DNA of 40,095 nucleotides. It comes from a virus. A program made the translations under genes and the position numbers. Position 1 is the stretch's first letter, and each line of letters starts with the position of its first letter. The stretch covers positions 1 to 40,095 of the IMG/VR virus record IMGVR_UViG_2799112531_000001; one strand, 5' to 3'. Of the stretch, positions 11,863 to 40,095 are shown in pieces. The notes under the pieces are model-generated. The model was not told the origin of the DNA. It made no database searches and was given only the letters and a program-made list of their open reading frames with translations.

Positions 11863-11867
11863 AAGTA

Positions 11868-11896
11868 TTGACAAGTTCGGGATACTCGACTATAAT
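11868..11896 (+). promoter_or_regulatory. Consensus early promoter TTGACA-17 nt-TATAAT
   Basis: Exact consensus hexamers and spacing. Lies 45 nt upstream of the cro-like gene. Confidence 0.75.
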
Positions 11897-11940
11897 GAGC
11901 TCGAAAGTTCAAGATACACGACTTTCAAGGAGGTGAATGT

Positions 11941-12168: not shown

Positions 12169-12329
12169 TTGAGTTTGTTTTTGACCGTGCTGATCTGACG
12201 AACGACAAAGAATACATAACTCTTCTTCGGGAGTTCATGACGGCGCGCAGCAACCTTCTCACCTACCTGGAGGATAAAACCAAAATCAGATTGATGCCCA
12301 TATCAACCGAGAAAAAAACCGAGGAGTGA
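12165..12329 (+). CDS. Hypothetical 54-aa protein (TTG start)
   Basis: TTG overlaps the cro stop (TTGA). RBS GGGAGGAG 5 nt upstream. MIEFVFDRADLTNDKEYITLLREFMTARSNLLTYLEDKTKIRLMPISTEKKTEE. Below the ORF-track cutoff. Confidence 0.45.
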   Translation: MIEFVFDRADLTNDKEYITLLREFMTARSNLLTYLEDKTKIRLMPISTEKKTEE

Positions 12330-12339
12330 GATTCACTCC
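12312..12339 (-). terminator. Hairpin GGAGTGA-gat-TCACTCC with a U-run on the minus strand
   Basis: On the minus strand the hairpin is followed by CUCGGUUUUUUUCUC. It spans both stop codons of the convergent small ORFs. Confidence 0.5.
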
Positions 12340-12488
12340 CCGGAATGACGCTGAATGACAGATTCAATTGCTTTTACAATTGCGTTGCAAACCTTACTCG
12401 CTTCCACATCGCTTGCACTGAATTCAGTAACAAACTGATATGCGATCTGTTCCTTCAACTCATTTAACAGTTCCAATGTTTTATCCAT
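12333..12488 (-). CDS. Hypothetical 51-aa acidic helical protein
   Basis: ATG at 12488. MDKTLELLNELKEQIAYQFVTEFSASDVEASKVCNAIVKAIESVIQRHSGE. Preceded by AAGGCGGTG and a TATAAT promoter. Confidence 0.45.
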   Translation of the reverse strand: MDKTLELLNELKEQIAYQFVTEFSASDVEASKVCNAIVKAIESVIQRHSGE

Positions 12489-12520
12489 ACAGGCACCGCC
12501 TTTTCTTGGTTTGTAAAGAT

Positions 12521-12549
12521 ATTATACTCTATCGGCCAAGAAAAAACAA
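12521..12549 (-). promoter_or_regulatory. Promoter candidate TTGTTT-17 nt-TATAAT
   Basis: -10 at 12521-12526 and -35 at 12544-12549 on the minus strand. Confidence 0.45.
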
Positions 12550-12574
12550 CCCGCCCCACCAACCTAACCCCTCC

Positions 12575-12600
12575 GGTTCCGATCCGTACACGGGCGGCAA
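12575..12600 (-). repeat. R1: 26-bp conserved element GGTTCCGATCCGTACACGGGCGGCAA (plus-strand reading)
   Basis: 24/26 identical to R2 and 23/26 identical to the reverse complement of R3. Flanking sequence is also similar to that of R2 (about 90 bp in total). Confidence 0.85.
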
Positions 12601-12661
12601 GAGGAAACACCAGTATGACCGGAAGGAAGTGCCTGCATGAGACGTGATCTTGTGATTTGTT

Positions 12662-12898
12662 TCATACTAGGGTTTTTAACCACTCTAGCAATTCGGGTAT
12701 GTATTGCGCTAATAATGTAGCAGTCACCCCGCTAAGAACGCCGAGAAAGTAGCTCCAAATCCTTTCCTTCCAAACCCGTCTTTTGTGTTCGTTCTCGTCT
12801 GCCTCGCGCTTTCCCCTGGCGGCAGCCTCTTCGGCCTCTTTCCGTTCAAATGCCGCAACTTTCGCCGCCGCAGGACTTTTCGGACGCTGTAAAGGCAT
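12662..12898 (-). CDS. Small membrane protein (78 aa, charged N-terminus, C-terminal TM)
   Basis: ATG at 12898 after GGGGGGTG. MPLQRPKSPAAAKVAAFERKEAEEAAARGKREADENEHKRRVWKERIWSYFLGVLSGVTATLLAQYIPELLEWLKTLV. Confidence 0.6.
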   Translation of the reverse strand: MPLQRPKSPAAAKVAAFERKEAEEAAARGKREADENEHKRRVWKERIWSYFLGVLSGVTATLLAQYIPELLEWLKTLV

Positions 12899-12926
12899 AG
12901 CAGCACCCCCCAAAAAAGATAATCAC

Positions 12927-12935
12927 ATTATACCA
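12927..12935 (-). promoter_or_regulatory. Extended -10 element TGgTATAAT
   Basis: Read on the minus strand, about 30 nt upstream of the 12898 ATG. There is no good -35. The R2 palindrome is centred about 45 nt upstream of the expected transcription start. Confidence 0.5.
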
Positions 12936-12951
12936 CACCAACACAACCCAT

Positions 12952-12977
12952 GGCTCCGACCCGTACACGGGCGGCAA
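12952..12977 (-). repeat. R2: GGCTCCGACCCGTACACGGGCGGCAA
   Basis: See R1. Confidence 0.85.
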
Positions 12978-13274
12978 AAAGAAAATGCCCGCAGCAACCG
13001 TGCGGACATTCTCTCCCGAGGCATTGACCCGGCAAAGGTTCAGTTTTCCAGCGGGTATGGCTGCTCGCCTTCCAGCGGGCCCTGTTGGTTGCGGCCCTGC
13101 CCTGAGCCTTTCGCCCTCACTCACGAGCCCCGGTCCCGTGCATCAGCGCATCGGGCCTTCCCGGTTGGTTTACCGGCCGCCGGGGACGGAAAGCGGAAAG
13201 CCACCAGCGATGAGCGCGGTCACAATAACGGACGTTGCTTCGATGGCAACCACCCCCTTCCTGTCTGATGTATT

Positions 13275-22684: not shown

Positions 22685-25600
22685 TCAGATGGCCCATTCC
22701 TTCCCATAAACATAGTAATACGCTTCCTCAAAAGATTTGTTGAAGGCCTTGCTTCCACGTTTGTTGTTCGTGTCCTTGAACGCAGAGGGCCATTCGTTCC
22801 TGGGAATACCAGATTGTTCGCAGGCTTTGAAGAATCCGTGATAGGACTGCTCGTTTGCAGCTACAGCCGACCTGAATGCGTCTATGTCCTCCTGAGGTGC
22901 GTCTCCCCAAATGGCGTTCGTCTCCTTCTTCTTCGTCTCCTCTTTCCCTTGTTTCTTCATGAAGGAATCGAAGGTTCTGTTGACGCCATTCTCCTTCCAG
23001 GCATTGTCTCCTCTGGCGGCCTGGATGCCGTCGAAGGCGGCCTTCTGCTGTTCGTAAGTGCCGCCCATGTTGAGGATCGCATCGTAAGCCTCCGCCTGGT
23101 TCATGCTGGCGAGGTTGCCTCCGCAGGCATCCATGAGGGAGGTCTGCATCTCGTTGGGCAGGGCGGAAATATACTTGTCGATATTTGCCTGAATCCTGGC
23201 CTTTTCATCCGCTTCGGCCTTGTACTCGTCATAGGTTTTACTTGTGCCGTTGTATATATCGAACAGAGCTTTCTGCTCGTTCTCAGACAGTCCGTTGGTT
23301 TTGGTCATGTCCTGGATACCGTCCCAGGCCTCTTCCGTCTTGACGGTGCCGTTGCCGTCTGCGTCGTACTTGGTATCCATCGTCAGACTGGCCCGCAGCA
23401 GAGCGGACACTTCAACGCTGTGCTCCGCTGCGGCGCTGTCCAGCTTTGCGATCCACTCTGGGACCTTGTCCGGATTCTCGCCGGCTGCCTGTTTGCCCTT
23501 CACCGTTGCATACTTCTCTAGTTTGCTCAAGTAATCTGCCTTGTCTGCGTCAGCTAGTTCCTTGTACTCATCGGAGTTGATAGCCTGCGTATAGAGGTCC
23601 TTCATGGTCTGGCCCTTCACGCTCTGGAGAAGGTTGAATTGCTCCATGCTCATAGGCTCGCCGTTGATTTTCGTGCTGGTTTTCTCAATGGTCGGGAATA
23701 CATTAAAATCGTTGTCATAGAGCCGTTGCAACTCTGCCTCTACTTCGCCGCCCTGTTCTTTCTTGATATAACCGGGGCTGATGAAGTTGGAGAAAATGCG
23801 GAGGGCCGGATTTCCGGTCATTTCCGGTTCGCCCCATGCGTTCAGATATTCCCGCTGGTGATACTCGCCAGGCAGCTTGTTGAAGGTCTTGCCAAGCAGG
23901 TATTGTATCTCGCTGGGAACCGCCGAATCCCGGTCTATCCAGGTGCTGTATCGCCGGTCCTCAAAGCTTCGCTCGATCTGCCCGCCGATGGTGGGAACAA
24001 ATTGGGTCAGGTACCCTGTGGCAAGCGTGCTGATGACTGACATGAATTTATTGTCTGCATAGCTCAGATTGTCCAGAAGGTCGTTGACCCCTTGCAGCAT
24101 GGACATTTCCAACATGGGATCAGAAATTCGCCGCAGGAAATTCCAAACGACATCTTTCCCTTTTTCTCCTACCCGAATGTCTTGTATCCCTTTTTGCAGC
24201 TCCACCCCCATAAAGAAGGGAATTGCTTCGGGTGCCAGCCAATCCAATGTGACGTTGTATCCCCCGGGAAGATTGAGGGCATAACTCTGTTTCCCTAAAA
24301 GCTGGTTAAACCTGTTCTGAGTGTCGTCCTCATCGTCGCCGGGAGTGACGATCCCCACCAGGCCCAAAACAGCGCCAAGACCCGCCAAGGCCGTTCCGGT
24401 CAGGCCGGAGGCCAGTTCGTCGATGCCCTGGGCCGCTGTCATTTCTCCCTTCCTGACCTTGATGCCCATATCTGCAATGCCTTTGATCAAGCCGATAGGA
24501 GAGTATTCGATCCCGCGTACCAGGACATTTGCCGGGGTCTTTTTGAAGGGAAGAAGGCCCTCTGTCAGGTAATGAACTCCTTTTTCAAAGGTTGTTTGGG
24601 GCGTTCCACCAAGCTTCTTCATGATAAACTGAGAGAACTGGTTCAGGTCCCGGTAAGTGGCCTTCTGCGCTTCTTCGATTGCGATGGCCTGAATCGCCTC
24701 TCTCGTCTGCGGAGAAAAGGCCGGGTCGGTGTATTCCTCTGCCGTGATTCCTCTGGCTTTCAGGACCCCCGCCAGACTGTCGGCATAAGTCCGCTTGGCA
24801 AAGAACACGTCGCCCTTCTCTAAGCCTGCGTTGGTCAGTTTCCGCCAGCCCTCAAATGGTTTGAATCGGAATATGGTTCGGTACTGGTCAATGTCGGAAA
24901 ACGTATCGTTGTACTTCCCGTTCCCCATAATGATTGATTCAACAGAATCATATTCCGCCAACCCGGCGTCATATCTTGCCTTGTCCGCCCTGGAAAGCCC
25001 TTTGAATTGCAGGCTTTTCGTCCGCTCTGACGGGTCAAGCCCCATCATCCGTTCCAGACCTGCGCCGATCATGTTCTTGGCGATTCGCACCGGTTGGAAG
25101 CCCAGGTTGCCAACGATATTTCGTATCTGTGTTCTGGGATTGCCCAACATTGCCATGTACCGCCAGGCGTCCAGCTTGTCCCCCAACGTGTTGGGAATTT
25201 GCTGAGCAATGGCTTTCTTGATTTCTGTCTCTATGGCAAGCTGTTCTTCCTCGGTCTGGGCCTCCATATACGCTTTGCCCAGGTCCTCCGGGATGGTGAT
25301 CCCGTCCCAATGCTCTGCGTCCAGCTTCTTATTCTGACGGATTTTATTTTCCAGCTTTTCCAGAGAAGACGCCAGGGAATAGAGCTTTCCGGTGGGTCCC
25401 AGCTTGTTGATGATATTGACGGCCTGTAAGACTTGACCGGCGGTTTTCCCGTACTCGATCATCTCGATTGCCAGGTCCATAGCCTCCACGATATGCCCAG
25501 AATTTGCGGCGTTGTTATACAGGACGATGCCCATAGTGGTCAGGTCCTTGCTCATCTTCCCGGCGTGAATGTCAGAGAGCCAGCTTTCCTTTGCACGCTG

Positions 25601-28600
25601 ATACCCCTGTTCGTTGATGATCCGTTCCGCCTCTGCTGTCGCCGCGCTGTCCGTATACGGAATGCGGGACAGTTGCCCGTTCCGTGCCATCTCTGCCAAC
25701 CCCCGGCTGATTTGATCCGGGGTCATACCGGCGTTGATAAGGGTGGAGGCGGTTTTACTGGTCAACTGCCCGAAGGGGTCCCGAACAGGGATGTCAACGG
25801 GGGCTCGTCCCCAATTCTCAGCTTCGGCTTCAACAGCCCGGTCGTTGATGGGGTGGAATTGGTCGGTGCCAAGCTGCCAGTCAGAGAGGGGATCAAACCC
25901 TCCCGGCGCAGCCCCCACGCTCCACTTCTCCCGAATCGCCCTCTCTTCCTCCAGCATCCGGGCAAGCTGCTCGTTGAAGAACTCCTGGTTGAAGCCGTCC
26001 GTCTCCGCTTCCTCCATAAGGATTTCCATGCGCTCCTGGAGGTCGGCCAGCTCCTCTTCCTCAGACTGGAAAGAAGATTCTGTGGTTTCCGCAAAATTCC
26101 CGTTGCTATTTTGATCCTGCTGTGGTATACTTGTTTCAGAATCGGAAGTTACTACGGTGCCTGACCCTTGGGTACGCCCGTCTGATGTAGCTTCCGGTTC
26201 TTTTTTTTCGCCATAAATTAGATCGCCGTTCTGGTCAACGACTTCATGTAAATAGTATTTGTTGCCTCGGCCTTTATACTCATTAACAATTACGCCAATT
26301 ATGCGCGGAGAACCCTTATACATTACTGGTCCGGCAAAGACATAAGAATCATACCCGCGTCCTTTCCAGTTAGGTTCAAAACCAATCTGATCTCCTTTGG
26401 AAATTACCTCTGGCACGCCTGCCATTAGTTCTATCTTTGCGTCACTTACTCCGTGGCCGATAAAACTGCTCTTTATTTTGTTTTTAGAAAACAAGACGTC
26501 GCCAAACCCAGGGCGCAACACGGACATGCCTATTCGGTTCAAGAAAGAAAACACTCGCTCAGTAGCTCGTCCTTCTTTTGGAATTTCAGTTCCGTCCAAA
26601 ACAGCAACAGGCTCCATGTTGTTCAAATCTTCGAGATTGTTTTGCAGATGTTCGACCAAAGCATCGAAATCGGTCCCCTTAGGATGGTGCGGCCTCTCGG
26701 GCTGTACTGCTTCCTCCGCCTCCGGCGGAGTATTTTTTAAGTTTTGACCGGTGGCAAGTGATCTACCCGATACGATTTGGATTTGATCGTCATTAAATGC
26801 AATATACACCCGATGCCTGGTATTATCCTTTTTATTGAATCTTCCTCCGCCGATATGGGTAATCCCGTCATAACCCAAATTGAATTGTAAAAAGTCACTG
26901 GCTGCCTCTTCACCTTGGAATTTATAATAACCTAGGTCGGCCAGATTCTCTTTCAGGGCTCGGAAACAGTCCTCGTTTGTTGGCTGTCCCTTCAGCTCTA
27001 GCAAATACGAGACGTCAAGGTCTTCGTTCTCTCGGAATGCTCCGATCCACTCCTCCATGTTGGCCGGAGCATCCATGTCAATGGGGTTACGAATGGAGAG
27101 ATATGCGGAATAGACACCCGGTTTCTGGCCCTTTCCTTTTTTTGTGTAGCTTTCAGCCACAGTCGGATCATCGGTAAAGTAGGAACCGTAGCCGAACAGC
27201 CCAAAACTGGAGCTGTATGGGTCAAAACGATCAAATCCATATTTGCTTGTGCCATGATACATAAGTTTCGGAGACCCGTCTGCCTGCACAACCCGGCTTC
27301 CATCAAACCATTTCTTAAATTCTTCCGATTCCTGATTCTGCCCCGCTTCCCACTCAGCCCGCAGCTCCTCTTCCGTCACCTCGCCCAGCTCCAGAGACAG
27401 CGCATTGTCCCGGAGAACCTGTTCAAAGGACCCCCGGGCCACGCCTCCGGCGATCCCTTCCTTGGTGCGGATGTAATCCTGATTCGCCCCGATCCGGGCG
27501 TCCGGATTCCCGCCAGCCTCCACCGGGGTATACCCGTTGGACAGCATATCGTCCAACGCCAGCTCCACCAGCTTGGCCGCCTTCACGTTCTCCTGGCCGT
27601 GGTCGCTGATGAGGGCGTCGCAGGCCTTGAGGATGTCTGTAGAGGACAGCCCCAGGTCGTGGAGCTTCCGCAGGGGCTCATTCCTCGCCATGAGAGTACC
27701 GGTCTTCCGCCCCAGAGCCCGGTCCTTGTTGGACCCCCGCACCGTCTGACGGCTGGCAAGGGAGGCCTCCACCTCTGTCTTGAGGGCCTGGGCCGCCTCC
27801 TGATAGAAGGGCTTGATCTCCGGGTGGTCCCACTGGAACGCCTTCACCTTCCGGTCCCCCAGCGCCCCGGCGTCCCGGTTGTCGATGTGGTTCTCCGGCT
27901 GACCGTACTGCCGAGACGTCGCACGGGCCGTTTCCTGGCCCTCTGCGGGCGTTTCCGTCCGGGTGGTCTCGGCTGCCTGCTCAGCACCGGGAACCGTCTG
28001 GGGCCGTCCTGCGGTCTCCTGCGGGGCCTCCTGCGCCGCGTTCTCCCTGCCTCCCCTTGCCAAGGGGAGGGGGACCGGCGAAGCCGGTGGAAGGGTGGAA
28101 ACGTCGCTGTCCCGCACCGCCTGAGCCTCCGGGCGCTCCTGTTCCGCTCTCTGCGCTTCTTCCGCCTGCCGCTGTGCCTGCTGTGCCTTCTCCTGCTCCA
28201 CCTGGGTCCGCTGTGCCTTCTGCATTTCCAACCCCACAAGCTGTTGCCGGAGTTGTTCCCCCTGGGCCTGGTGCTGGGCCAGCTCGTTCAAAAGATGCTT
28301 GTGCCAGGTGGGGTCCTGCTCGGTGAAGGTCATGCGATCAAGCAATTCGGTTGCCCGGTTCTTCCATGCCTCGATCTGATCCTGGATGGCGGCTTCCCGC
28401 TGGGCCAGCTCGTCCACCGTGGGGGTCACCCGGTCCATGGCGGCGGTGGTTCTGTCCGCCTGTTCGGTCTGCCCTCCGGTCCGTCCGCTTCTCCTCGCGC
28501 CGATCATCCCGGCCCCGGCTCCCATGCCGATGGAGGTCAGGGCGGAGATAGCCGCCGTGTCGAGAAGGTCCCGGGCGGTCAGGGAGGCGTTGGGGTCCTT

Positions 28601-30550
28601 GAAAGCCCGGTCCGCGCCGTATTCCAAAAGCTCGGACGCCTCCTCGGTGCCCACTTCCTCCAATGCCTGGGTCAGCAGATTTCGGGCAAAGGAATCCCCG
28701 CCCCCTCTTGCGATCCTGGTCAGGTTCCGCAGGGGGATCAGTTCGGTCCCGGCCTCGATGGCCCCGGAGAGAACGCCCCGTTCAAAGGCTTCGACAGGAT
28801 CAGCGCCCTGTCCTTCCAGGGCGCCCATTTCCCGGCCGGCGGCCTGGGCGCCCATAACGGCAAGGCTGGGGAGAGTAGCCCCGCCGGTGGCTGCCGCCGC
28901 CAGCAGGCCCGGGGCCATTTCGCCGCCGGTGATAAGGGCTTCCGTCAGATACCGTTCCAGTCCCCGCTGGCCCTCTGTGGCCTGTTCCCGGTACTGGTTG
29001 GACTGGTTCAGCAGCCGCTGAGACAAGGGCTGTTCTTCCCTTGCCTTTTCCAAAGCATACCGCAGCAGATTGGCTCTCGCCTGGGGGGAGGCGTTCTGAT
29101 ACCGCTCACTGGAAAGCAGGGCGGAGATTTTGTCCTCTGCCCTGGGCAGGGCCTCCGGTTCGGAGATATTGACCTCTCCGCCGCCCCGGATGTCCGACAG
29201 GGCTTGCAGGAAGTCCCGGTTCCGCGCCGCGTCGGCCCGGAGCGCCCGCCCGGTGGTTCCGGGGATAGAAAGAAAGGACCCGGCGATCCCCGTCCCGATG
29301 GCCTTCGGGATGGCTGCCGCCTGGTCCTGCTCCCTTTTCCGTTCCTCTGCCGTGCCGGCGTACCGCATCCGGCCTTCGCTGTCCGTCTCCCGGTAAGCCC
29401 CCCGGTCAAACCCTGCCTTCCGGAGGGTGGGGTCCCGTCGGATGGCTGCCCCCTGGGCGGCGTACCGGGCCCGTTCCTCGTCGGTCTGGGCGTTCTGATA
29501 CCCCAGCTTGGCCGCCCGGAGCCGGGTCAGGCCCTCTTTGGTCAGGCTGGCCCGGTCCTCCCGGGTGACCTCCGGGGTGTTGTGCTCGTTGCCCTTGTCG
29601 CCGCCGGAATAGCCGCCCCGGATACGCCGCCAGGTCTCCGCCCGCCGGTGGGCCTTCTCCATGCCCTCCGTGTCGCCTCTCCGCTTGGCCGCGTCGTAGT
29701 CCTGTTTTGCCAGCCGGATTTCATCCCGGTACTGCTGCCCCAGAGCGTTGTCATACCGGGAAAGGGTCTGCTGTTTCGCGCCCCGCTGCCGGGTCCGCTC
29801 CCTGATCCTGGCTGCCGCGTCCTTCACGCGGTCCGCGTCGGTCTGCTCCTTCTGCTTGACCGTCACGCCCACATTTCTGCCGAAGTTGGCATAAGAGCGG
29901 GAGTCCGCTTTCAGGGCAGAGAGGGGGTCCAGGGCGGTGGCGTCAATGATGTCCTTGTAGGGGACTTTTGTCCCGGTGAGGCCGTACCCTTGTCTCGACA
30001 GCTCCTCGTCCCGGACCATGCGGTCCAGCGCCGATTCCGTCAGAGTGGTCTTATACATCCCCGCCGGCGTGGCGGGGTTGTTCTCTTTGCGGCCTGCTTC
30101 GTGATACTTCTCCATGCCCAGCTCTTTCAGGATGCCGGACGGCTTCTGGGGGAGGTATCGGTTCCGGGCGATGTTCTCGCTTTGTACCGCCGACCTTGCG
30201 GCCACGTCCCGGACAAACCGGGTCCTGTCGAAGGTGCCCTGCATCGCCTTTTCGGTCTGGGCGGCCCGCTTCACCTGGGGCTTGCCTGCCACCGTCTTGG
30301 TCGCCTGCTTTCCCACCCGCTTGGCAGGGGTGGCGCTCCCGGTCTTAACGGCCTTTGCGGCCTTCTGGCTCACCTTCTTCGCGGCGGTCTGGGCCGCTGG
30401 CTTCCCGTTGCGGCGGGTGTCCGTGCTCTTTGTGCCGGCCCTGGTGTTGGTCTTTGCGGTCTGGGCCGGCTTCTGCGCGGCGGTCTTCGCCCTGTTGGCG
30501 GTGGTCTGCGCCGTCTGTTTTAACTTGTCCTTCATCGTGGAAATCGACAT
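22685..30550 (-). CDS. Giant 2621-aa virion/ejection-type polyvalent protein
   Basis: Last gene of the structural operon, RBS AAGGCGGTGA. Contains an N-terminal K/A/T-rich basic tract, Gly/Ala-rich hydrophobic segments, central ART-like and second effector-like domains, and a large alpha-helical C-terminal half. Confidence 0.85.
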   Translation of the reverse strand: MSISTMKDKLKQTAQTTANRAKTAAQKPAQTAKTNTRAGTKSTDTRRNGKPAAQTAAKKVSQKAAKAVKTGSATPAKRVGKQATKTVAGKPQVKRAAQTEKAMQGTFDRTRFVRDVAARSAVQSENIARNRYLPQKPSGILKELGMEKYHEAGRKENNPATPAGMYKTTLTESALDRMVRDEELSRQGYGLTGTKVPYKDIIDATALDPLSALKADSRSYANFGRNVGVTVKQKEQTDADRVKDAAARIRERTRQRGAKQQTLSRYDNALGQQYRDEIRLAKQDYDAAKRRGDTEGMEKAHRRAETWRRIRGGYSGGDKGNEHNTPEVTREDRASLTKEGLTRLRAAKLGYQNAQTDEERARYAAQGAAIRRDPTLRKAGFDRGAYRETDSEGRMRYAGTAEERKREQDQAAAIPKAIGTGIAGSFLSIPGTTGRALRADAARNRDFLQALSDIRGGGEVNISEPEALPRAEDKISALLSSERYQNASPQARANLLRYALEKAREEQPLSQRLLNQSNQYREQATEGQRGLERYLTEALITGGEMAPGLLAAAATGGATLPSLAVMGAQAAGREMGALEGQGADPVEAFERGVLSGAIEAGTELIPLRNLTRIARGGGDSFARNLLTQALEEVGTEEASELLEYGADRAFKDPNASLTARDLLDTAAISALTSIGMGAGAGMIGARRSGRTGGQTEQADRTTAAMDRVTPTVDELAQREAAIQDQIEAWKNRATELLDRMTFTEQDPTWHKHLLNELAQHQAQGEQLRQQLVGLEMQKAQRTQVEQEKAQQAQRQAEEAQRAEQERPEAQAVRDSDVSTLPPASPVPLPLARGGRENAAQEAPQETAGRPQTVPGAEQAAETTRTETPAEGQETARATSRQYGQPENHIDNRDAGALGDRKVKAFQWDHPEIKPFYQEAAQALKTEVEASLASRQTVRGSNKDRALGRKTGTLMARNEPLRKLHDLGLSSTDILKACDALISDHGQENVKAAKLVELALDDMLSNGYTPVEAGGNPDARIGANQDYIRTKEGIAGGVARGSFEQVLRDNALSLELGEVTEEELRAEWEAGQNQESEEFKKWFDGSRVVQADGSPKLMYHGTSKYGFDRFDPYSSSFGLFGYGSYFTDDPTVAESYTKKGKGQKPGVYSAYLSIRNPIDMDAPANMEEWIGAFRENEDLDVSYLLELKGQPTNEDCFRALKENLADLGYYKFQGEEAASDFLQFNLGYDGITHIGGGRFNKKDNTRHRVYIAFNDDQIQIVSGRSLATGQNLKNTPPEAEEAVQPERPHHPKGTDFDALVEHLQNNLEDLNNMEPVAVLDGTEIPKEGRATERVFSFLNRIGMSVLRPGFGDVLFSKNKIKSSFIGHGVSDAKIELMAGVPEVISKGDQIGFEPNWKGRGYDSYVFAGPVMYKGSPRIIGVIVNEYKGRGNKYYLHEVVDQNGDLIYGEKKEPEATSDGRTQGSGTVVTSDSETSIPQQDQNSNGNFAETTESSFQSEEEELADLQERMEILMEEAETDGFNQEFFNEQLARMLEEERAIREKWSVGAAPGGFDPLSDWQLGTDQFHPINDRAVEAEAENWGRAPVDIPVRDPFGQLTSKTASTLINAGMTPDQISRGLAEMARNGQLSRIPYTDSAATAEAERIINEQGYQRAKESWLSDIHAGKMSKDLTTMGIVLYNNAANSGHIVEAMDLAIEMIEYGKTAGQVLQAVNIINKLGPTGKLYSLASSLEKLENKIRQNKKLDAEHWDGITIPEDLGKAYMEAQTEEEQLAIETEIKKAIAQQIPNTLGDKLDAWRYMAMLGNPRTQIRNIVGNLGFQPVRIAKNMIGAGLERMMGLDPSERTKSLQFKGLSRADKARYDAGLAEYDSVESIIMGNGKYNDTFSDIDQYRTIFRFKPFEGWRKLTNAGLEKGDVFFAKRTYADSLAGVLKARGITAEEYTDPAFSPQTREAIQAIAIEEAQKATYRDLNQFSQFIMKKLGGTPQTTFEKGVHYLTEGLLPFKKTPANVLVRGIEYSPIGLIKGIADMGIKVRKGEMTAAQGIDELASGLTGTALAGLGAVLGLVGIVTPGDDEDDTQNRFNQLLGKQSYALNLPGGYNVTLDWLAPEAIPFFMGVELQKGIQDIRVGEKGKDVVWNFLRRISDPMLEMSMLQGVNDLLDNLSYADNKFMSVISTLATGYLTQFVPTIGGQIERSFEDRRYSTWIDRDSAVPSEIQYLLGKTFNKLPGEYHQREYLNAWGEPEMTGNPALRIFSNFISPGYIKKEQGGEVEAELQRLYDNDFNVFPTIEKTSTKINGEPMSMEQFNLLQSVKGQTMKDLYTQAINSDEYKELADADKADYLSKLEKYATVKGKQAAGENPDKVPEWIAKLDSAAAEHSVEVSALLRASLTMDTKYDADGNGTVKTEEAWDGIQDMTKTNGLSENEQKALFDIYNGTSKTYDEYKAEADEKARIQANIDKYISALPNEMQTSLMDACGGNLASMNQAEAYDAILNMGGTYEQQKAAFDGIQAARGDNAWKENGVNRTFDSFMKKQGKEETKKKETNAIWGDAPQEDIDAFRSAVAANEQSYHGFFKACEQSGIPRNEWPSAFKDTNNKRGSKAFNKSFEEAYYYVYGKEWAI
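26216..26608 (-). other. Second effector-like domain, aa about 1315-1445 (possible PBECR/LPD-type)
   Basis: ...SSFIGHGVSDAKIELMAGVPEVISKGDQIGFEPNWKGRGYDSYVFAGPVMYKGSPRIIGVIVNEYKGRGNKYYLHEVVD. Assignment is tentative. Confidence 0.35.
26771..27319 (-). other. ART-like (ADP-ribosyltransferase of polyvalent proteins-like) domain, aa about 1078-1260
   Basis: FKKWFDGSRVVQADGSPKLMYHGTSKYGFDRFD...FGYGSYFTDDPTVAESY matches the remembered ART-PolyVal signature. No HMM run. Confidence 0.55.
30251..30550 (-). other. Basic low-complexity (histone H1-like, AKxA/KT-rich) N-terminal tract of the giant protein
   Basis: aa 1-100: ...KTAAQKPAQTAKTNTRAGTKSTDTRRNGKPAAQTAAKKVSQKAAKAVKTGSATPAKRVGKQATKTVAGKPQVKRAAQ. 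Confidence 0.7.
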
Positions 30551-30565
30551 AGGATCACCGCCTTA

Positions 30566-32065
30566 TCAGATATAGCCTCTGGACCGCAGGATGTAGTAGG
30601 TCTCGGGGTTCTGGGCCGCCAGATACAAAGCCGCCGTGGAGGAATTCCCACCCACGCTGGCAAGCTGCCCGGTGTCGCCGTACCCTGCCAGCATATTGGC
30701 GATGTCGAAGCTGTTCTGCCACGCCTGCTGCTGGGCCGCGACCTGGTTCTGCCTGGTCTGCCGGTTGAAGTCCGCCACCTGCATATTAAGCTGGGCCTGC
30801 TGGACCGCCGTGTTGACCCGACTGGTCTGGGCGGTCTGATACTCCTGGAGCAGCGCCGCCGCCCGCTGGTAGTTGTTGTCCGCCACCGCCTGGGCGATCT
30901 GCTGCTGGTAGTTGTTGTAGAGCTGGGTCAGGTCGAAGTTGGCGTCCGCCAGGGCGTTGGCTTCGGCGGTATTGAGCTGGCCCAGACTATTCTGGAGCTG
31001 ATTGGAGAAGGCCAGGGCCGCCTGGCTCCGGTTCCCGGCGTTCAGGCCGTTGGCCGCCGCCTGTTCCCGGAAGGCCAGTTTCTCCCGTTCGTTGTCCGCC
31101 GCCGCCGCGTTCTTCTGGGTCTGATACAGGGCGGGGATTTTCGCCGCCTGATACTCCGCGTTGGCCCGGCTGTTGTTGTAGGAGGCCAGCAGTTGAGACA
31201 GGGAGGCGTCGTTGAGCCGGTCATAGACTGCGTTGGCCTCCTCGATCTGCGGCTCATAGACCGGCAAACCGATTTGGGCCAGCATATCCTGTTCCTGGGG
31301 CAGGATGGTCAGGTGGTTGCCGTCGCTGCCCAGAGAGTAGCCGTACTTGGCCCGGATGGCCTCCGCCTGGGCATTGATGTTGGCCCGCTCCGCCGCGCTC
31401 TTGGCGTTTACATAGTCCTGCTTGAGCTGGAGAATGAGGGCCTGGTCCGTGGCGGACAGGGTGTTTTGATCGTATGCGTTCAGGGTGATCCCCGCCCCCG
31501 TCTGGGCGGAAGCTCCGGGAAGAGCGGACCAGACAGAGGCCGGCGTGTTCTGCGGCGTCCCGATATACTGGGACCCGTCCGCCCCGCCGGAATACCCCTG
31601 CTGGGCCCGGATCAGCTCCGCCTGGGCGTGGGCGTTCTGCATCCCGGCGGTGTCCCCGGCGGCCTTGGCCGCGTTCCACTGGTTTTTCCAGTAGTCGATC
31701 TGCGCCGCCTGGTCCGCCGCCCGGAGCTCCGCGTCGTTGTAGGTCCCCTTGGGCGTATACCCGGCGTTCACCCCCGCCGTGCTGGTCCCGGTCCCCGTGG
31801 GCTTGCTCCCCGCCGCCTGGTTGATGGCGTTGACGGCGGCGGAGACCGCCCCGCCGGAGCTGCCCGAACTGCCGGAGCTGCCGGAACTCTTGGCCGCCAC
31901 CGCCTGATTGACGGCCCTGGCCGCCGCCGCAGACGCCCCGGAGCCGGAAGCGTAAGTGGTAGAGCCGCCTTTTGCGGCGGATGTCGTTTTGCTGCCGCTG
32001 CTTGCATTATACGTCTTGGTTGCGGCCTGCACCGCCGCCTTGGCCGCCGCTGTTGCGCTTGCCAT
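30566..32065 (-). CDS. A/Q/N/S-rich 499-aa protein, putative internal virion or ejection protein
   Basis: Low-complexity N-terminus. Two copies of a 40-aa module ending in GYSGGxDG, which is also present in the giant protein. Sits between the fibre genes and the giant gene. Confidence 0.6.
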   Translation of the reverse strand: MASATAAAKAAVQAATKTYNASSGSKTTSAAKGGSTTYASGSGASAAAARAVNQAVAAKSSGSSGSSGSSGGAVSAAVNAINQAAGSKPTGTGTSTAGVNAGYTPKGTYNDAELRAADQAAQIDYWKNQWNAAKAAGDTAGMQNAHAQAELIRAQQGYSGGADGSQYIGTPQNTPASVWSALPGASAQTGAGITLNAYDQNTLSATDQALILQLKQDYVNAKSAAERANINAQAEAIRAKYGYSLGSDGNHLTILPQEQDMLAQIGLPVYEPQIEEANAVYDRLNDASLSQLLASYNNSRANAEYQAAKIPALYQTQKNAAAADNEREKLAFREQAAANGLNAGNRSQAALAFSNQLQNSLGQLNTAEANALADANFDLTQLYNNYQQQIAQAVADNNYQRAAALLQEYQTAQTSRVNTAVQQAQLNMQVADFNRQTRQNQVAAQQQAWQNSFDIANMLAGYGDTGQLASVGGNSSTAALYLAAQNPETYYILRSRGYI

Positions 32066-32251: not shown

Positions 32252-33349
32252 TTACTCATTCGCCACCGTGTAATAACCGACAATGGGGTTGCCCCCTCCC
32301 ACGGTCAAAACGGCCATATTGTTGCCATTTGCGACAAGGGCAACGCCTGTATTGTTCTTAATAGCTGTTGCCGTAAGGTTAGTGATACCGTGTGCGTTCC
32401 CAAGAGATTCAGTTGCATAAAAGCGCAGTACATTGTTTTCCATATACGCCATAACATAAAGACCATTTGCATAAGCTAACCCAATCGGTGTAACCTGTGC
32501 AGACAAGATTTTACTTGCCGTAAAGGTCATACTGCCCGGAGTTCCATTAGAGTAATAAAGATATGTTCCATCGCTCTTTGTTCCTGCAATGACGAGATAA
32601 TCTCCCATCTGTGCGCAAACAGCAGAATTGAAGTTGTCAGCAATCTTAAACATTCCATGCACTGCAGTTTCTGAAAAACTTGATTTATAGGTGTAATACC
32701 CATTCAATGAAATAGCGACTGGATAACCTTTATATACACAGCATTTATATATATTCTGCGTTAATGAACCATGTTCTAATGTTCTATATGTGCCTGAACC
32801 ATCTCCGAATGCAGTAATTTTACTACCAAGCATTATCCAACTGTACACGCTATCAGGGTCAGATACAGCATCTGTAGCTTCGATGGTTTTTTTCCAACCT
32901 GCCCACGACGTATTGTTCCAACCTCCCTCTATTCTTGTTGGATTTCGTACATCCGTTGACTTTCCGAATATATACCACCAACTGCTGTCACTTGTGAATG
33001 CGATAGCATTTACGCTTGTATTTGTTCCGCTTTTTAGGTTTATATATGACCAAGAGGACAGGTTGGAGCTTCTTGCCACAATACCTTTACCGCTGCTGTC
33101 ATTTCCTCCAACATAGTAGTACCCTTTGTAGTAATAAAAACACTTCGGTGTAAAGGATGGACTGATAGTAGCCACAGAAACATTAGGAATAGTAATGCCG
33201 TATTTGTCTTTCAGTTTGCACGACATAATCTCTCGAAGCTTATCGGGGAATGTGTCGGCAACGATATTTGACGATGTGCCAAGCAGTTCACGAATTGCAT
33301 CTGCAATATCATCGAACAGAGACACCAATGTAATATGATTATTTGCCAT
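32252..33349 (-). CDS. Distal tail fibre / receptor-binding protein candidate (365 aa, low GC)
   Basis: ATG at 33349 with RBS AAGGAGGAAG. Follows the collagen-like fibre gene. S/T/Y/G-rich, beta-strand-like sequence. Visibly AT-richer than its neighbours. Confidence 0.55.
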   Translation of the reverse strand: MANNHITLVSLFDDIADAIRELLGTSSNIVADTFPDKLREIMSCKLKDKYGITIPNVSVATISPSFTPKCFYYYKGYYYVGGNDSSGKGIVARSSNLSSWSYINLKSGTNTSVNAIAFTSDSSWWYIFGKSTDVRNPTRIEGGWNNTSWAGWKKTIEATDAVSDPDSVYSWIMLGSKITAFGDGSGTYRTLEHGSLTQNIYKCCVYKGYPVAISLNGYYTYKSSFSETAVHGMFKIADNFNSAVCAQMGDYLVIAGTKSDGTYLYYSNGTPGSMTFTASKILSAQVTPIGLAYANGLYVMAYMENNVLRFYATESLGNAHGITNLTATAIKNNTGVALVANGNNMAVLTVGGGNPIVGYYTVANE

Positions 33350-33362
33350 TTTTTCTTCCTCC

Positions 33363-35012
33363 TTAATAACTTGCGGCAATCGCATTTCCGATAGCATTCT
33401 GGATTGCCGTGTTTACATTCGCCGTGGTCGGCTTGGCGTTCCAAGCCGTCCGCTCCGCCGCTGTGATGTGCTTGGTGTTGTCTCCGATGTGGTTGGTCAG
33501 GCTGGCTTCCACAGTGGGGAGTTCGACGAGGGCCTGGTTGAAAGCCGTTTCTGTCCCGGAATATCCCGCTTCGACAGCCGCCTGATAGGCACTCTTGCCG
33601 TCCTGGCCGGATACCCCCGCCGGCCCCTGGGGTCCTTCCGGTCCCGTTTCGCCCTGGGGTCCCTGGATGCCCTGGGCTCCTGTGTCGCCCTTCGGGCCCT
33701 GGGGGCCTGTCTCTCCGGTCTCGCCCTGGATACCCTGTTCACCCTGGATACCCTGGATACCCTGAGGACCTTGTGGGCCTGTGGGGCCTTGGGGTCCGGT
33801 TTCCCCCGGCTCCCCCTGTTCGCCCTGGATGCCCTGGATACCCTGAGGGCCCTGTGGACCGGTGGGGCCGGTCGCTCCGGTAGGGCCTTGTGGGCCCGTC
33901 TCTCCCTGGGGGCCTTGGGGACCTTGCAGCTTGCCCAGGCTCACCCAATCCGTTTCCAGCTCGGACCAGATGAAGATTTCGTCGTCCTCTGTCGTCACCT
34001 GATAGGCGTACTCATTGCCTGTGGGATAGGCCAGCTTCAAAGTGCCCAGGGTGGGGTAAATATCCTGGATGACAAAGGAACGGCCATCCGCACCGTCATT
34101 GCCCTGCAAACCCTGGGGCCCTCTGGGGCCTTGGGGTCCGGTGGGCCCGGCGGGGCCGGCGGGGCCGGTATCACCCTGGGGTCCCTGGATGCCCTGGGCT
34201 CCTTGCAGGCCTCTGGGGCCCGCTGCGCCGGTGGCGCCGGTATCGCCGGTATCGCCTTTTTCTCCCCGTGGGCCCTGAACACCTTGGAGCCCCCGGGGGC
34301 CGGTTGCCCCGGTAGCGCCGGTCTCCCCGGTGTCGCCCTTGTCCCCCTTGGGCCCCTGTACTCCGCGCACACCCTGGATACCCTGGGGCCCTCTCTCGCC
34401 CTGGGCTCCCTGCGCCCCCTGTACCCCCTGAGGGCCCTGGGGGCCCCGCACAGAGACAGAGCCCGGGGCGATGGCGGTGTCCTGGATGGTGAAGGACATG
34501 ATCCCGTTGGCGTCGATGGAGGGCACGATCACCGGGCCCGTCAGCCCCCGTTCCCCCTGGATGCCCTGAATACCCTGGTCCCCCTGGTCTCCCTTGTCGC
34601 CCTTGTCCCCCTTGATGCCGTGGACCACGGTCTCGATCCCGTTGTCCGTCACCTCGGAGTTGGTAAAGCGCATCCGGGCCCGCTGGGGCATCTGGTTCCC
34701 GTCCGGGTCCAGGATGATGTGGCCGGAGGAGGCAGTGGCGATCCAGGTCTCTCCGTTGGCGGAGACCTCGATCACGTCGTCGCTGTTGAGCCGAATATAC
34801 TGCACGGCGCTGTCTGCCGTCCGCAGCAGGTCCAGCACCCCCGCCGCCTCCAGGGCGGGGAGCAGCACCTCGTTCAGATAGGTCTGGATCGCCTTGCCAC
34901 CCTGGTCAAACTTAGCCTTCAGCTCTGCCGCCGTCAGGCCGCCTACGTCGTTGGGCTCGTCGTCCAACTGCTGGATAATGTTCAGATTGTCGTCGAGGGT
35001 CGGTAAAGACAT
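33363..35012 (-). CDS. Collagen-like tail fibre protein
   Basis: ATG at 35012 with RBS AAAGGAGGGGGA. Several long G-X-Y tracts ([22 protein letters not shown]...). The N-terminus ...[14 protein letters not shown]... is typical of Firmicutes phage fibres. Confidence 0.85.
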
Positions 35013-35028
35013 CGTTCCCCCTCCTTTC

Positions 35029-37122
35029 TCACCGGGCATATCCGGTGTATCGGACCCGCAGGTCCGCGTTGAGTATGGTCACGGTGGTGTCCGCCGTGGT
35101 GGTGGAGAAGATCAGCTTGTAGTACACAAACTTCTTCGCCTTGATTTTCAGCCGCTTCTGGTGGGGCTTCCGGTTGGTGTTGAAGCTCCACGCCCGGAAG
35201 TCCGCCGCCGCAAAGGACACCAGGGAAGAGGCCACCAGCTTTTCCGTGTAGCTGGATTTTCGGTCCGTCTGGATGGTGACATACACTTCCCCGTGGGCCT
35301 CCGGCTTGATGCCCACCCACAGCATGGCGGAGTATTTCCGCATAAACTCCCGGTCAAAGGGGATGGACCCGGATTCCCAATAGCTGTCGATGGCCTTTCC
35401 GTTGTCCGTCCGGTTCCCATACTGGAAGGAGTTGATCCGCCCGGACCGGTCCCCGATGTACAGGTCCCCCCGGAAATTCACAAAGCAGGCCGCCGGGAAA
35501 TCCGTGTAGCAATACCAGGCGTCCGAGGCGTAGTTGTGGACCAGGGCCCTGCCGTCATAGCAGCAGTAAAATTCCTGGTTGTCGTTGTCGTCCCAGCAGA
35601 CGCAGGCCGCCAGGTCGAAGGAATCCAGGGTGGCGGTGATCCGGTCGGAGATTCGCTTCGCCTGCCGCTCGTCTACAGACAGATTGCTGGTATAGCTGGA
35701 AGCGTTCCGCCATTCATACAGCTCATGGCCGTGGAGGGTGTAGGGGGCGTTCAGCACCAGCCGGACCTGGCCCGGCGCAGCGTTGCCGATGCTCCGGTTC
35801 ACGGGGGTGGCGTAATAGACCGGGGTGGTCAGCCCGTCCGCCAGGGTCTCCACGCTGTATTGCACGGCGTAGGCGGAGTTGGTCTTGAACACCAGCAGCC
35901 GGGAATAGTGCCGGATGAGGGCCGTAATGGGGGTGTTGGCTTCCCCGATGACCAGCACGTTCATGTCGGGGAAGTAGTCCGCCCGGGCCTCCCCATCATA
36001 GTCCAGGCCCGAATAGATGGCCTGGTTGGTCCCGTCGCCGTAGAGAAAGACCCGGTTGTCGTTCTGCCCATTGAAGAGCTCGGAGAACCGCATGGTCTCC
36101 ACCTTGGCCCGGTCCGTCTCCGCCACGGAATAACCGATCTCGTAGCTGTTCACCGCCGCAGTTGGGGCGGTGGCAAAGGTCACGGTGCCGTTGGTCAGGT
36201 CCGTGGTGTAGTCCGCCGCCGGGATGTTGTTTCCCGTGGCCCGGTCCTTCACATAGTCGATGGAGGAGAGGGCCTTTTCCGGCAGGGCGAAGGTGACGAC
36301 GCTCCCGTCCGGGGAAATCCATACCCGCCGCTGGCCGCACAGTTTATTGATCTGCTCCAGGGTGGTCCCGCCGGCGGTCCCGGCAATGGAGACCGATACC
36401 AGAGGCCGGTATCCCGCCACCTCTCCGAAGGTGGTCCCGTCCCACTGGTAGTATTTTTTCCCGTTCATGATATAGAGCTGTTCGGAATAGCCGAACATGT
36501 GGACCTGGCCCGTGGTGTCCAGGGTGCCGATCTCCGTCTTGCACCAGTCCGCGCCGTCGTGGACCTTCCACAGCTTCCCGTCGCAGGCGGCCACCATGCA
36601 CTCGGTCCCCTTCACGTTCCCGGCCCACAGCCCCGCCACCTTGGAATCGGCGGAGGCGCTCACCGCTCGGACCCGCTTCATGGTCCAGGTATAGGCGTCC
36701 GTTTCCGGGTCGTAGTCCAGAGAGACCAGCTTCCACACGGCGTACTTGTTGTAGACCCAGTAATAGCCCACATAGTCCTGCCAGTTATCGAAGGTGACGG
36801 TCACCACGTCATCAGACGGCGCCACAAAGCCCTCCGCCGTGGCGGCGGCGCTCTGGTGCATCCGAAGCTGAGAGCAGATTTCTGTGTCCGTCCGTGCCGC
36901 CTCCGCCTCCCCCTCGGAGAGGGAATAGGTCTGCATCACGCCCACCATCTGGTCCATGCCGGGCCGGCGCTGGAGGTTGCCGTCTCTTGTCACCCGGAAG
37001 TTTCGGATGACCGACGCCTCCCCCAGGGCAAGCTTGGTGTCGCCGTCCGGGTTCTCGTTGAGCCCAAGCCACCGCAGGATGCGGTAGACCTTTTCATCCA
37101 GTTTGCCGGAGATATTCGCCAT
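35029..37122 (-). CDS. Large tail structural protein (697 aa; podovirus nozzle / tail tubular B-like candidate)
   Basis: Position between the adaptor-like gene and the fibres. W/Y/G-rich repeats suggest a beta-propeller-like fold. No HMM run. Confidence 0.45.
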
Positions 37123-37646: not shown

Positions 37647-38498
37647 TCAGGCCGTGGCGGTCTTAGACACATAGATGCCCTTGGCCTTGGTGTCCAGCAC
37701 GAAGCTGTCATAGATGTAGCGGCCTTCCACCACGTCGCCGTCCACGCCCATGGGGTTCTTGTGGACCCGGTAATTCTTCAGCTGCATGGCGTCAACCGTG
37801 GCGCCCTTGAGCTTGATGAAGAAGTTGATGTTGGCGGGGAAGATGGAGGAGGGGACCGTCACCACGTCCATGCCGTCGATCTGGCCCCGATAGCCCCGGC
37901 GGACGTTCTCGGTGGTGAGGGTGTCGCTGGAGCCGGTGACCACGTCGGACAGCTTGAACTTCACGAAGGTCAGCTCAGGAATGAACAGGGTCCGCCCCAC
38001 CTTGGGGACCTTCTCATTGCTCATCTGCGCGCCGGCCTCGAAGATCTTCTCCAGGATGTTGGTCTTGGTGACCACGCCGTCGTTGGAGGACAGTACGGAG
38101 AAACCGGTGGACAGACCATTGCCGGTCACCCACTTTGCCATGCGGTAGGTGTCGATCTCGGGGGTGATGACCTCGTCGATTTCCCGCTTCAGGCAGGCGT
38201 TGGCCTGCTTGATGTTGAACTGCTGGGCCTTGTTGCCCGCGTCGATGGAGAAGGTGAAGGCCTTGTCCTGGGTCAGGGTCATGGTCTGCACGGTGTCGCC
38301 CAGCTCGGTCAGGCTGCCGAAACGGGCGGTGCCGCTGCGGGTGTAGTTGGTGGTGGCGACGGTGTCGATCTTATAGATGGTGATCTTGTTCACGCCGTCG
38401 AAATCGTAGTCTTTGCCGACATATCTGTCAGTCAGGGAGCCCAGGGAAAACCGCTCCTGGACCTTCTTTGCATATTTTTCAGCCAGGTTAATAGCCAT
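37647..38498 (-). CDS. Major capsid protein
   Basis: 283 aa. Follows the scaffold gene. N-terminus MAINLAEKYAKKVQERFSLGS... resembles the major capsid proteins of small Firmicutes phages. Confidence 0.75.
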   Translation of the reverse strand: MAINLAEKYAKKVQERFSLGSLTDRYVGKDYDFDGVNKITIYKIDTVATTNYTRSGTARFGSLTELGDTVQTMTLTQDKAFTFSIDAGNKAQQFNIKQANACLKREIDEVITPEIDTYRMAKWVTGNGLSTGFSVLSSNDGVVTKTNILEKIFEAGAQMSNEKVPKVGRTLFIPELTFVKFKLSDVVTGSSDTLTTENVRRGYRGQIDGMDVVTVPSSIFPANINFFIKLKGATVDAMQLKNYRVHKNPMGVDGDVVEGRYIYDSFVLDTKAKGIYVSKTATA

Positions 38499-39526: not shown

Positions 39527-40095
39527 TCAGTCCATCCCCAGCTTCTCCGCCGTCTCGTTGGCGTTCTTGTCTCCGGGGAGCAGGCCCAGCCGGCCCAGCA
39601 TGGCAACGACCTCTACCCGCTTGGCGGGGCGCTCCGGGGCGGAGCCGTCGGTAACATCCGCCTTGACGGCCTTCTGCCACCAGCCTTCTTCCCGGCTCCA
39701 GTCCGGTTCCGGCTGGACGCTCATGGCCTTAAGGGCCTTCCGCACCAGGACCAGGGCCTCCTGGTCTGTGAGGTTTTCGATGATGGTCTTGACTTCCTTC
39801 TCGGTCATGTCCGGTTCCTCCTTTTTCGGTTCGGGTTCCGCCTTTTTCTTCGGCGCCTTGATGATCCAATACAGCTTGACCTGCTGCTTGAATACCAGAT
39901 AATTCCCGTGGGTCCGTGCCATCCTGGTTGAGGCGGGGTCATTGATATACACCATGTTCCCCTCGATCTTCCATACCAGCACATAATGGCCGGAGCTGGT
40001 CCACAGGCCCTTGCCCATGCAGGCGATCACCAGGTCCCCGTTGTCCAGCGCCGCCTTGGCTTGGGCGTGATAGGGGCTGTTGGCGTTGCCGTAGA
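39527..40095 (-). CDS. Endolysin, 3' part (end of peptidase domain, K/E/P linker, C-terminal putative wall-binding domain); last 99 nt duplicate 1..99
   Basis: ORF-track protein ...GKGLWTSSGHYVLVWKIEGNMVYINDP... followed by linker KKKAEPEPKKEEP and a roughly 90-aa C-terminal domain. It joins the 1..385 frame. Confidence 0.8.
   Translation of the reverse strand, partial: YGNANSPYHAQAKAALDNGDLVIACMGKGLWTSSGHYVLVWKIEGNMVYINDPASTRMARTHGNYLVFKQQVKLYWIIKAPKKKAEPEPKKEEPDMTEKEVKTIIENLTDQEALVLVRKALKAMSVQPEPDWSREEGWWQKAVKADVTDGSAPERPAKRVEVVAMLGRLGLLPGDKNANETAEKLGMD
39997..40095. repeat. 99-bp terminal direct repeat, copy B (identical to 1..99)
   Basis: Read directly; see copy A. Confidence 0.95.

Follow-up and report, generated by a model that had tools for sequence, protein, structure and literature searches.

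Among phage proteins, those of the polyvalent type are predicted to act first in an infected cell, and few of them have, to our knowledge, been studied. We analyzed one such candidate, a protein of 2621 amino acids (aa) encoded in a viral DNA sequence of 40,095 nucleotides (nt) (IMG/VR record IMGVR_UViG_2799112531_000001, positions 1 to 40,095, here called the window). This protein, referred to below as the giant, carries a putative ADP-ribosyltransferase (ART) domain and a second small domain between two long conserved modules, the second of which shows homology to the internal core proteins of gp16 type found in marine T7-like phages. We interpret it as a phage-type polyvalent protein built on the chassis of an ejection protein, with a probability of roughly 0.7.

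The closest described systems fall into several groups. The polyvalent proteins of Iyer et al. 2017 (PMC5512222) are giant multi-domain proteins encoded among late or virion genes, with extensive domain mosaicism between orthologues and, as a frequent but non-obligatory trait of the phage type, a zincin metallopeptidase hub. JC1 gp69, a 'DarB-like' protein of a Bcep22-like podophage, has 4515 aa, takes up 22% of the genome at the end of the virion module, combines transglycosylase, methylase, helicase and LPD3 domains with a near-C-terminal LPD38, and mass spectrometry has found it in virions (PMC9144972). The gp47 protein of the Stx phage phi24B, reported at 2811 aa (the GenBank coding sequence translates to 2807 aa), carries LPD5, LPD1, LPD38 and MuF-C, was likewise detected in virions and has been proposed as an ejection protein (preprint 10.64898/2026.04.10.717836). 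The virion RNA polymerase of N4, gp50, is a giant that is packaged and ejected, its termini serving injection and encapsidation and its central enzyme being the cargo, and T4 Alt is a head-packaged ADP-ribosyltransferase that is injected with the DNA and modifies host proteins (PMC5512222). In the marine phage Syn5, gp43/44/45 form the virion (capsid) core and are the counterpart of T7 gp14/15/16 (PMC5850374).

The giant resembles the polyvalent proteins in its multi-domain build, its position among virion genes and the mosaicism of its relatives. It differs from them in that a single enzymatic domain is recognisable, that a zincin metallopeptidase and a MuF or portal fusion are lacking, and that about 80% of its length consists of two conserved helical modules that are unmodelled in Pfam and of which term searches of PMC5512222 found no discussion. 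With JC1 gp69, BcepIL02 gp70 and phi24B gp47 it shares the allotment of ~15-22% of a podophage genome to one gene that closes the virion module or lies near its end, the polyvalent architecture and a conserved C-terminal module in which a hydrophobic helix is followed by acidic residues; in those proteins, however, this module is LPD38 (PF18857), the hosts are Proteobacteria and the cargo is different (transglycosylase, methylase-helicase, or LPD5/LPD1/MuF-C). The C-terminal ~650-800 aa of the Bcep22-like and Stx giants constitute one family, which reaches a Bacillus podophage. N4 gp50, whose ejection has been experimentally shown, has no detected sequence relation to the giant, carries an RNA polymerase and belongs to another phage family, and T4 Alt, a small stand-alone ART of the R-S-E clade from a myovirus, would be comparable by functional analogy only.

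The giant is encoded by an intact minus-strand open reading frame (ORF) at 22685..30550, which starts with ATG 15 nt past the stop of the preceding gene and comprises 2621 codons and a stop. It makes up 19.7% of a genome of 39,996 bp, in line with the original prediction, made from the letters of the sequence, of a single ORF covering about 20% of the genome. The window is longer than the genome since its nt 1-99 are repeated exactly at 39997-40095, which indicates an overlap in the assembly of a genome that is circular or circularly permuted, and the virion module consequently wraps across the window ends. A search of 5.8 billion proteins returned 148 matches, mostly giants of 1500-4500 aa, and full-length homologues with the same layout are present in metagenomes. 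Maps from BLAST and hidden Markov models (HMMs) divide the protein into three parts, an N-module (aa 1-1071), a cargo slot (aa 1072-1540) and a C-module (aa 1541-2621); the slot varies between relatives and the modules that flank it are conserved. The features named in the original prediction, set out below, are far beyond chance.

The C-module provides the link to ejection proteins. No Pfam, PHROG or NCBIfam model covers it. When 1.84 billion cluster representatives were searched exhaustively with phmmer, 6,290 of them matched at E <= 1e-3, and 3,088 of these at E <= 1e-30. In all of the best 150 of the 6,290 matches the module is C-terminal, and in 29 of the 30 relatives examined it ends at most ~265 aa from the C-terminus. 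The C-terminal half had been described as helical, and the AlphaFold2 model of aa 1541-2621 (34-sequence alignment; mean pLDDT 80.4, pTM 0.59) is indeed helical almost throughout. When compared with the viral structure database BFVD, this model hit virome polyvalent proteins in their C-terminal parts (E 1e-52 to 1e-28) and also the 'internal virion proteins' of S-CBP3 (E 8e-13), S-RIP1, S-CBP2, NATL2A-133 and a pelagiphage (E 8e-13 to 1e-5 for the group). Several of these belong to the P-SSP7 gp16 family, which includes Syn5 gp45, S-CBP3, S-RIP1, NATL2A-133 and the 'internal virion protein D' of a Roseobacter phage (CRP-114) and from which a profile of 11 members was built. HHalign placed the profile of the C-module core against this gp16-type profile with a probability of 99.55% (E 1.9e-23, 461 columns), and with the 34-sequence profile the probability was 99.5% (E 3.2e-22, 533 columns), with aa 1754-2341 of the giant corresponding to aa 542-1165 of gp16. 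The core (C2) contains the motifs WRYxAMLGNPRTxIRN, LPFKKTPANV, EYSPxGL, QSYALxLPGGYxVTLDWLAP, DPMLEMSMLQG and NFISPGY. Its strongly hydrophobic helix aligns with aa 881-902 of P-SSP7 gp16, and helix and following beta-hairpin together with aa 881-950. From the profile and fold matches, we conclude that the C-module belongs with the internal core (ejection) proteins of gp16 type.

The similarity to the marine proteins therefore includes homology over about 460-530 columns, aligned motifs, a hydrophobic helix with a beta-hairpin and similar predicted folds, and the matching region sits in the C-terminal part of the cyanophage protein as it does in the giant. The differences are that the marine proteins have 860-1610 aa with no polyvalent-type cargo annotated in their records, that they come from Autographiviridae infecting diderm hosts, and that no sequence or fold link between the giant and T7 gp16 itself was found.

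The central block had been predicted to combine an ART-like signature with a second compact domain, and the Pfam search proposed as a check bears out the first part strongly and the second marginally. ART-PolyVal (PF18760) matches aa 1090-1262 with 55.4 bits (E 1.5e-14) in the whole protein and with 62.8 bits (E 7.7e-17) in the isolated segment, against a cutoff of 31.2. LPD3 (PF18798) matches aa 1342-1433 with 23.9 bits in the whole protein, which is below its cutoff of 27, and with 28.2 bits in the isolated segment; aa 1296-1514 are 37-43% identical to proteins with a precomputed PF18798 assignment. The one PHROGs match on the giant (phrog_21376) also lies over the ART domain. NCBIfam gave no match on the giant, and PDB sequence searches with the whole giant and with the ART and LPD3 segment returned nothing. 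The occurrence of these unrelated domains in one polypeptide between two conserved modules, and the intact active site described below, identify the giant as a polyvalent protein of the phage type, as had been proposed.

The active site of the ART-PolyVal family is an H-Y-D triad on strands 1, 2 and 5 (Tox-ART-HYD2 clade), and the clade that holds the family is described as kin to protein-modifying ARTs such as PARPs and the diphtheria and cholix toxins (PMC5512222). In the giant the triad consists of H1099 in MYHGTS, Y1124 in GSYFTDD and D1228 in YDGITH, with D1228 assigned as the active-site Asp from conservation rather than from structure, and all three residues recur without exception in the 7 other ART-PolyVal domains that were aligned with it. 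As the triad is intact, the domain looks catalytically competent, judging from its residues. ART substrates also include nucleic acids and nucleotides (PMC5512222), so that the chassis could be as we describe it and the ART could act on nucleic acids, on NAD+ or on a defence signalling nucleotide instead of a host protein, or could serve as a non-catalytic binding module. The target is not deducible from sequence and the close relative P0001 manages without the domain, which is compatible with such roles; the intact triad and the kinship with protein-modifying enzymes argue the other way, and we consider this alternative unlikely.

Comparison of the giant gene with that of P0001 (L009) defines the ART cassette. 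The two genes are 92% identical at the DNA level up to nt 3212 and 96% identical from nt 3813, and what the window gene has in addition is exactly 600 nt, or 200 codons (aa 1072-1271), which amount to the ART domain, in frame, with short GQN(Q/L) peptides at both edges. The GC content of third codon positions (GC3) is 0.81-0.84 in the N-module (0.84 in the domain adjoining the ART), 0.475 in the ART block (aa 1076-1275), 0.50 in LPD3 and the linker, with a minimum of 0.38 at aa 1401-1500, and 0.66-0.69 in the C-module. In composition the cargo is foreign to the sequence on either side of it, which fits domains gained by recombination, and the indel is direct evidence, in the compared sequences, for what appears to be a very recent in-frame gain or loss of the ART. 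Since P0001 lacks the ART, the domain seems dispensable for virion function.

The other relatives extend this picture. P0001 and P0002, whose C-modules are 97% identical to that of the giant, keep LPD3 and lack the ART, and P0003, P0005, P0010 and P0011 lack both. Elsewhere the cargo between the N-terminal region and the C-module is a PBECR5 RNase, a ddrB-ParB, a MuF_C or a methyltransferase domain. In the distant relative P0045, with a C-module of 28% identity, ART-PolyVal is followed by LPD3 and then by the C-module, and the combination is therefore recurrent and not unique. The suggestion that it might be undescribed does not hold, given this identical order and the thousands of members of the C-module family. 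The giant is not a new kind of system, as its domain order recurs elsewhere; what the analysis adds is the anatomy of a chassis with a cargo slot, the tie by homology between the C-module and core proteins of gp16 type, and evidence for a very recent in-frame gain or loss of an ART.

A second variable point lies at aa ~1742-1754, where P0009 (+374 aa) and P0029 (+120 aa) have insertions and where the AlphaFold2 model shows a loop between helices. Stand-alone C-module genes of about 800-900 aa also occur and are preceded by a separate polyvalent-like gene. In the split giants L005:3-5176 and L006:6357-12697, the C-module core is a separate gene of 812-898 aa that overlaps the stop of the upstream gene; the upstream genes encode at least 912 aa (cut by the contig end) and 1215 aa, the latter with a HELTH zincin-like motif, and the L005 gene is split near aa ~1742-1754, where the insertions of other relatives are found.

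The N-module is conserved in the closer relatives, and its Gly/Ala-rich core is traceable further out, aa 401-700 being its most widely conserved part. The N-terminal tract had been called histone-like and basic; it is certainly basic (24 K+R against 3 D+E in aa 1-100) and keeps this character in relatives, but the resemblance to histones is one of composition, as no histone fold or DNA-binding family was detected in the giant, and the tract is mostly of low confidence or disordered in the model. The predicted Gly/Ala-rich hydrophobic segments are borne out by Kyte-Doolittle peaks at aa 411-429, 548-566 and 662-684, with a stronger one at aa 2050-2068 in the C-module. The AlphaFold2 model of the N-module (pLDDT 62.8) contains confident helical stretches and a small confident domain at aa ~905-1075; the region aa 885-1071 is mobile and is found at other positions in the giants P0019, P0021, P0023, P0032, P0036 and P0051. 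Against BFVD, the model is only weakly similar to the N-terminal portions of other polyvalent giants. By analogy, the N-terminal part of P-SSP7 gp16 (aa 136-243) likewise holds Gly/Ala-rich hydrophobic stretches.

These features also bring to mind an external tail component (tape-measure-like, hub or needle) with accessory domains in place of a capsid-internal protein. Gly/Ala-rich hydrophobic helices and long helices resemble those of tape-measure proteins, the giant gene comes after the tail-fibre gene, and tape-measure proteins do appear among the BFVD matches of the N-module, at levels that are not significant (E 0.07-1.6, probability <=0.16). The portal is nonetheless of the P22 type, the scans gave no tube, sheath or tape-measure family, the matches of the C-module to internal core proteins are highly significant, and an NAD+-dependent enzyme would have no obvious extracellular role, all of which makes a tail component very improbable. 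A tape-measure identity as such was rejected on the absence of a family match, the non-significant BFVD matches and the lack of a tube gene in the scanned ORFs of the virion module.

The genomic context is that of a virion protein. Pfam and PHROGs scans identify the minus-strand block that closes with the giant gene as a virion module of P22-portal type, in which the giant is the largest product, all other ORFs being of at most 700 aa. The original prediction that the giant ends this module is confirmed, as its gene lies on the same strand and comes last after those for the large terminase (TerL), the P22-type portal, the major head protein, the collagen-like fibre and two ORFs without family matches; relatives are alike in this respect, with the giant gene at the same position and, in one prophage, abutting host genes. 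The statement that the phage has no tape-measure or tube genes also agrees with the scans, which gave no match to such families among the virion-module ORFs of at least 150 aa. In the GenBank phages, tblastn of the whole giant gave two weak domain-level matches only, and megablast of 25 kb gave nothing relevant. Related prophages are found in genomes of Pseudoflavonifractor, Faecousia, other Oscillospiraceae and Peptococcaceae, which makes a bacterium of the Bacillota, and within these of the Oscillospiraceae, the probable host.

From these observations we infer packaging, ejection, channel formation and ART activity on a host target in the following manner. The giant would be made late, alongside the virion proteins, and packaged within the capsid of a short-tailed phage of P22-portal type, from which it would be expelled at infection through portal and tail, before or with the DNA. 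The C-module, helical and with a single strongly hydrophobic helix, could help to build or anchor a conduit across the cell envelope, to which the Gly/Ala-rich N-module would probably contribute. The slot between the modules would bring the cargo, an apparently active H-Y-D ART and LPD3, into the cell, where the ART could use host NAD+ on a host target at the start of infection, in takeover or counter-defence. The cargo slot itself may evolve through the in-frame gain, loss and replacement of whole domains. The giant had been singled out as the best candidate of this phage for an ejected effector or channel protein, and the homology of its C-module to gp16-type internal core proteins strengthens that choice.

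A number of points weigh against this interpretation. Detection in virions comes from the analogues JC1 gp69 and phi24B gp47 and not from this phage or its close relatives. Sequence, profile and Foldseek searches of the PDB with the C-module matched no solved structure, T7 gp15/gp16 included (best Foldseek E 0.2, TM <0.3). The gp16 label of P-SSP7 was itself 'assigned by synteny and size', and the gp16-type profile did not reach T7 gp16 in the PDB, so that the link to the solved T7 ejectosome is indirect. The likely Bacillota hosts have no outer membrane, and the T7 model of a periplasm-spanning tunnel may therefore not transfer directly. A gp14-like or gp15-like partner was not identified in the module, where the 499-aa and 381-aa ORFs are without family matches, and the N-module model is poor and without an informative fold match. 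The giant contains no protease domain or HExxH motif for cargo release; neither HExxH nor HxxEH motifs nor peptidase families were found in it by motif search and Pfam, and processing by a metallopeptidase of its own was rejected for the lack of HExxH. Finally, HHalign of the C-module against an 8-sequence profile of the LPD38 module is colinear over 659 columns and not significant (E 1.3e-3, probability 18%). Single-sequence comparisons with LPD38-type giants match at the same helix-plus-acidic patch, and Pfam LPD38 has no match in 14 C-module sequences (the giant and 13 relatives), even at E up to 10; as the profile comparison is merely suggestive and the Pfam match is lacking, we do not claim a relation between the C-module and LPD38.

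Some of these points would also suit an unpackaged protein, which would serve takeover or anti-defence in the cytoplasm with its several domains, would be made late or carried over, and would act in the producer cell or be released at lysis. The limitation of virion detection to analogues, the need of the ART for cytoplasmic NAD+, which would allow it to act in the producer cell, and the lack of a MuF or portal fusion and of a protease domain are all consistent with this. The giant gene is, however, translationally close-coupled to virion genes, its place is unchanged in distant relatives, homology ties the C-module of the giant to core proteins of the capsid interior, and analogous giants are present in purified virions. 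We thus judge the unpackaged alternative to be quite unlikely and favour an ejected polyvalent protein.

The giant represents a clean case, as its defined slot holds a single, apparently active ART, a near-isogenic natural relative lacks exactly that domain, and the chassis is tied by homology to capsid-internal ejection proteins. Its anatomy offers a concrete way of reading the thousands of unannotated giants in gut viromes, and the chassis may serve for delivering chosen enzymes into gut Clostridia. A broader and more tentative proposal, which we hold to be possible though short of probable, is that short-tailed phages of gut Clostridia possess a general effector delivery platform, in which a gp16-type ejectosome subunit with a cargo slot (aa ~1071-~1541) and an insertion site (aa ~1742-1754) exchanges effectors (ART, PBECR RNase, ParB nuclease, methyltransferase) in frame, like the tips of polymorphic toxins. 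If so, thousands of unannotated giants could be read as an ejection protein with its cargo, and phages of monoderm hosts would be shown to have ejection proteins. Among such phages, we know of a reported absence of ejection proteins only for phi29-like phages.

Table 1. Positions in the window of the giant gene, its parts and the genes of the virion module.
Feature	Position	Strand	Remarks
Whole giant polyvalent protein	22685..30550	-	2621 aa + stop
Shine-Dalgarno-like AAGGCGGTG	30556..30564	-	5 nt 5' of the giant's ATG
aa 1-100, basic Lys/Ala/Thr/Gln-rich tract	30251..30550	-	24 K+R vs 3 D+E
aa 401-700, Gly/Ala-rich weakly hydrophobic helical region	28451..29350	-	peaks aa 411-429, 548-566, 662-684
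aa 701-830, Gln/Glu-rich	28061..28450	-	predicted long helices H712-742, H747-813
aa 885-1071, compact domain closing the N-module	27338..27898	-	pLDDT about 75-90
aa 1072-1271, ART cassette	26738..27337	-	600-nt in-frame indel vs P0001 gene
aa 1296-1445, LPD3-type domain	26216..26665	-	Pfam aa 1342-1433
aa 1440-1540, acidic Ser/Thr/Glu-rich linker	25931..26233	-	lowest GC3 of the gene
aa 1541-1741, C1, first part of C-module	25328..25930	-	
aa 1742-1754, C1-C2 loop	25289..25327	-	
aa 1755-2370, C2, C-module core	23441..25288	-	homologous to gp16-type conserved C-terminal region
aa 2050-2068, LTGTALAGLGAVLGLVGIV, most hydrophobic helix	24347..24403	-	KD (Kyte-Doolittle) 2.0; followed by DDEDD
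aa 2371-2621, helical tail	22688..23440	-	kept only among closer relatives
aa 2396-2407, EF-hand-like loop DADGNGTVKTEE	23330-23365	-	in C-terminal tail
499-aa ORF, no family match	30566-32065	-	directly upstream of giant
381-aa ORF, no family match	32252-33397	-	
558-aa tail fibre, long collagen triple-helix repeats	33363-35039	-	Pfam Collagen E 4e-43
697-aa virion-module protein, amidase-like C-terminus	35029-37122	-	phrog_5107, E 2e-10
Major head protein	37647-38498	-	phrog_422
P22-type portal	815-2605	-	PF16510
Large terminase (TerL)	3019-4527	-	

Among the neighbouring genes, the 499-aa and 381-aa ORFs upstream of the giant gave no match in Pfam, PHROGs or NCBIfam (the 381-aa ORF had a non-significant NCBIfam E of 0.066), and the 499-aa ORF has no PDB relative; both could be candidates for tail or ejection partners. 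In the relatives L001 and L009, ORFs of comparable size (545 and 501 aa) immediately precede the giant gene. The 697-aa protein, which is without a PDB relative, is possibly a virion-associated cell-wall hydrolase, a function that would be relevant to entry into a thick-walled host. The plus-strand block of the genome carries replication genes, including those for a Sak4-like protein and a DnaB-like helicase. No intrinsic terminator or promoter was found at the 3' end of the giant gene.

Further observations concern related proteins and the composition of the genome. Bacillus phage Palmer (L034, NC_028926 19806-24842), a podophage of Bacillus megaterium, encodes a 1678-aa protein that has a portion of the LPD38-type module of the Bcep22-like and Stx-phage giants (26% identity over 240 aa), and this module therefore occurs in phages of monoderm hosts as well. 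The EF-hand-like loop in the C-terminal tail of the giant is kept only in the closest relatives P0001, P0003 and P0006 and departs at one position from the PROSITE EF-hand pattern; BFVD labels some related proteins 'EF-hand domain-containing'. An ORF of 1089 aa at 27254-30523 on the plus strand lies antisense to the high-GC N-module stretch of the giant gene and is most likely an artefact and not a gene, since a GC3 of ~0.8 leaves few stop codons on the opposite strand. The GC content of the genome changes in blocks from 45% to 67%, also within the giant gene, with 0.45-0.47 at 10001-13000 and 0.64-0.67 at 27001-32000, and these swings point to a strongly mosaic phage assembled from sources of differing composition.

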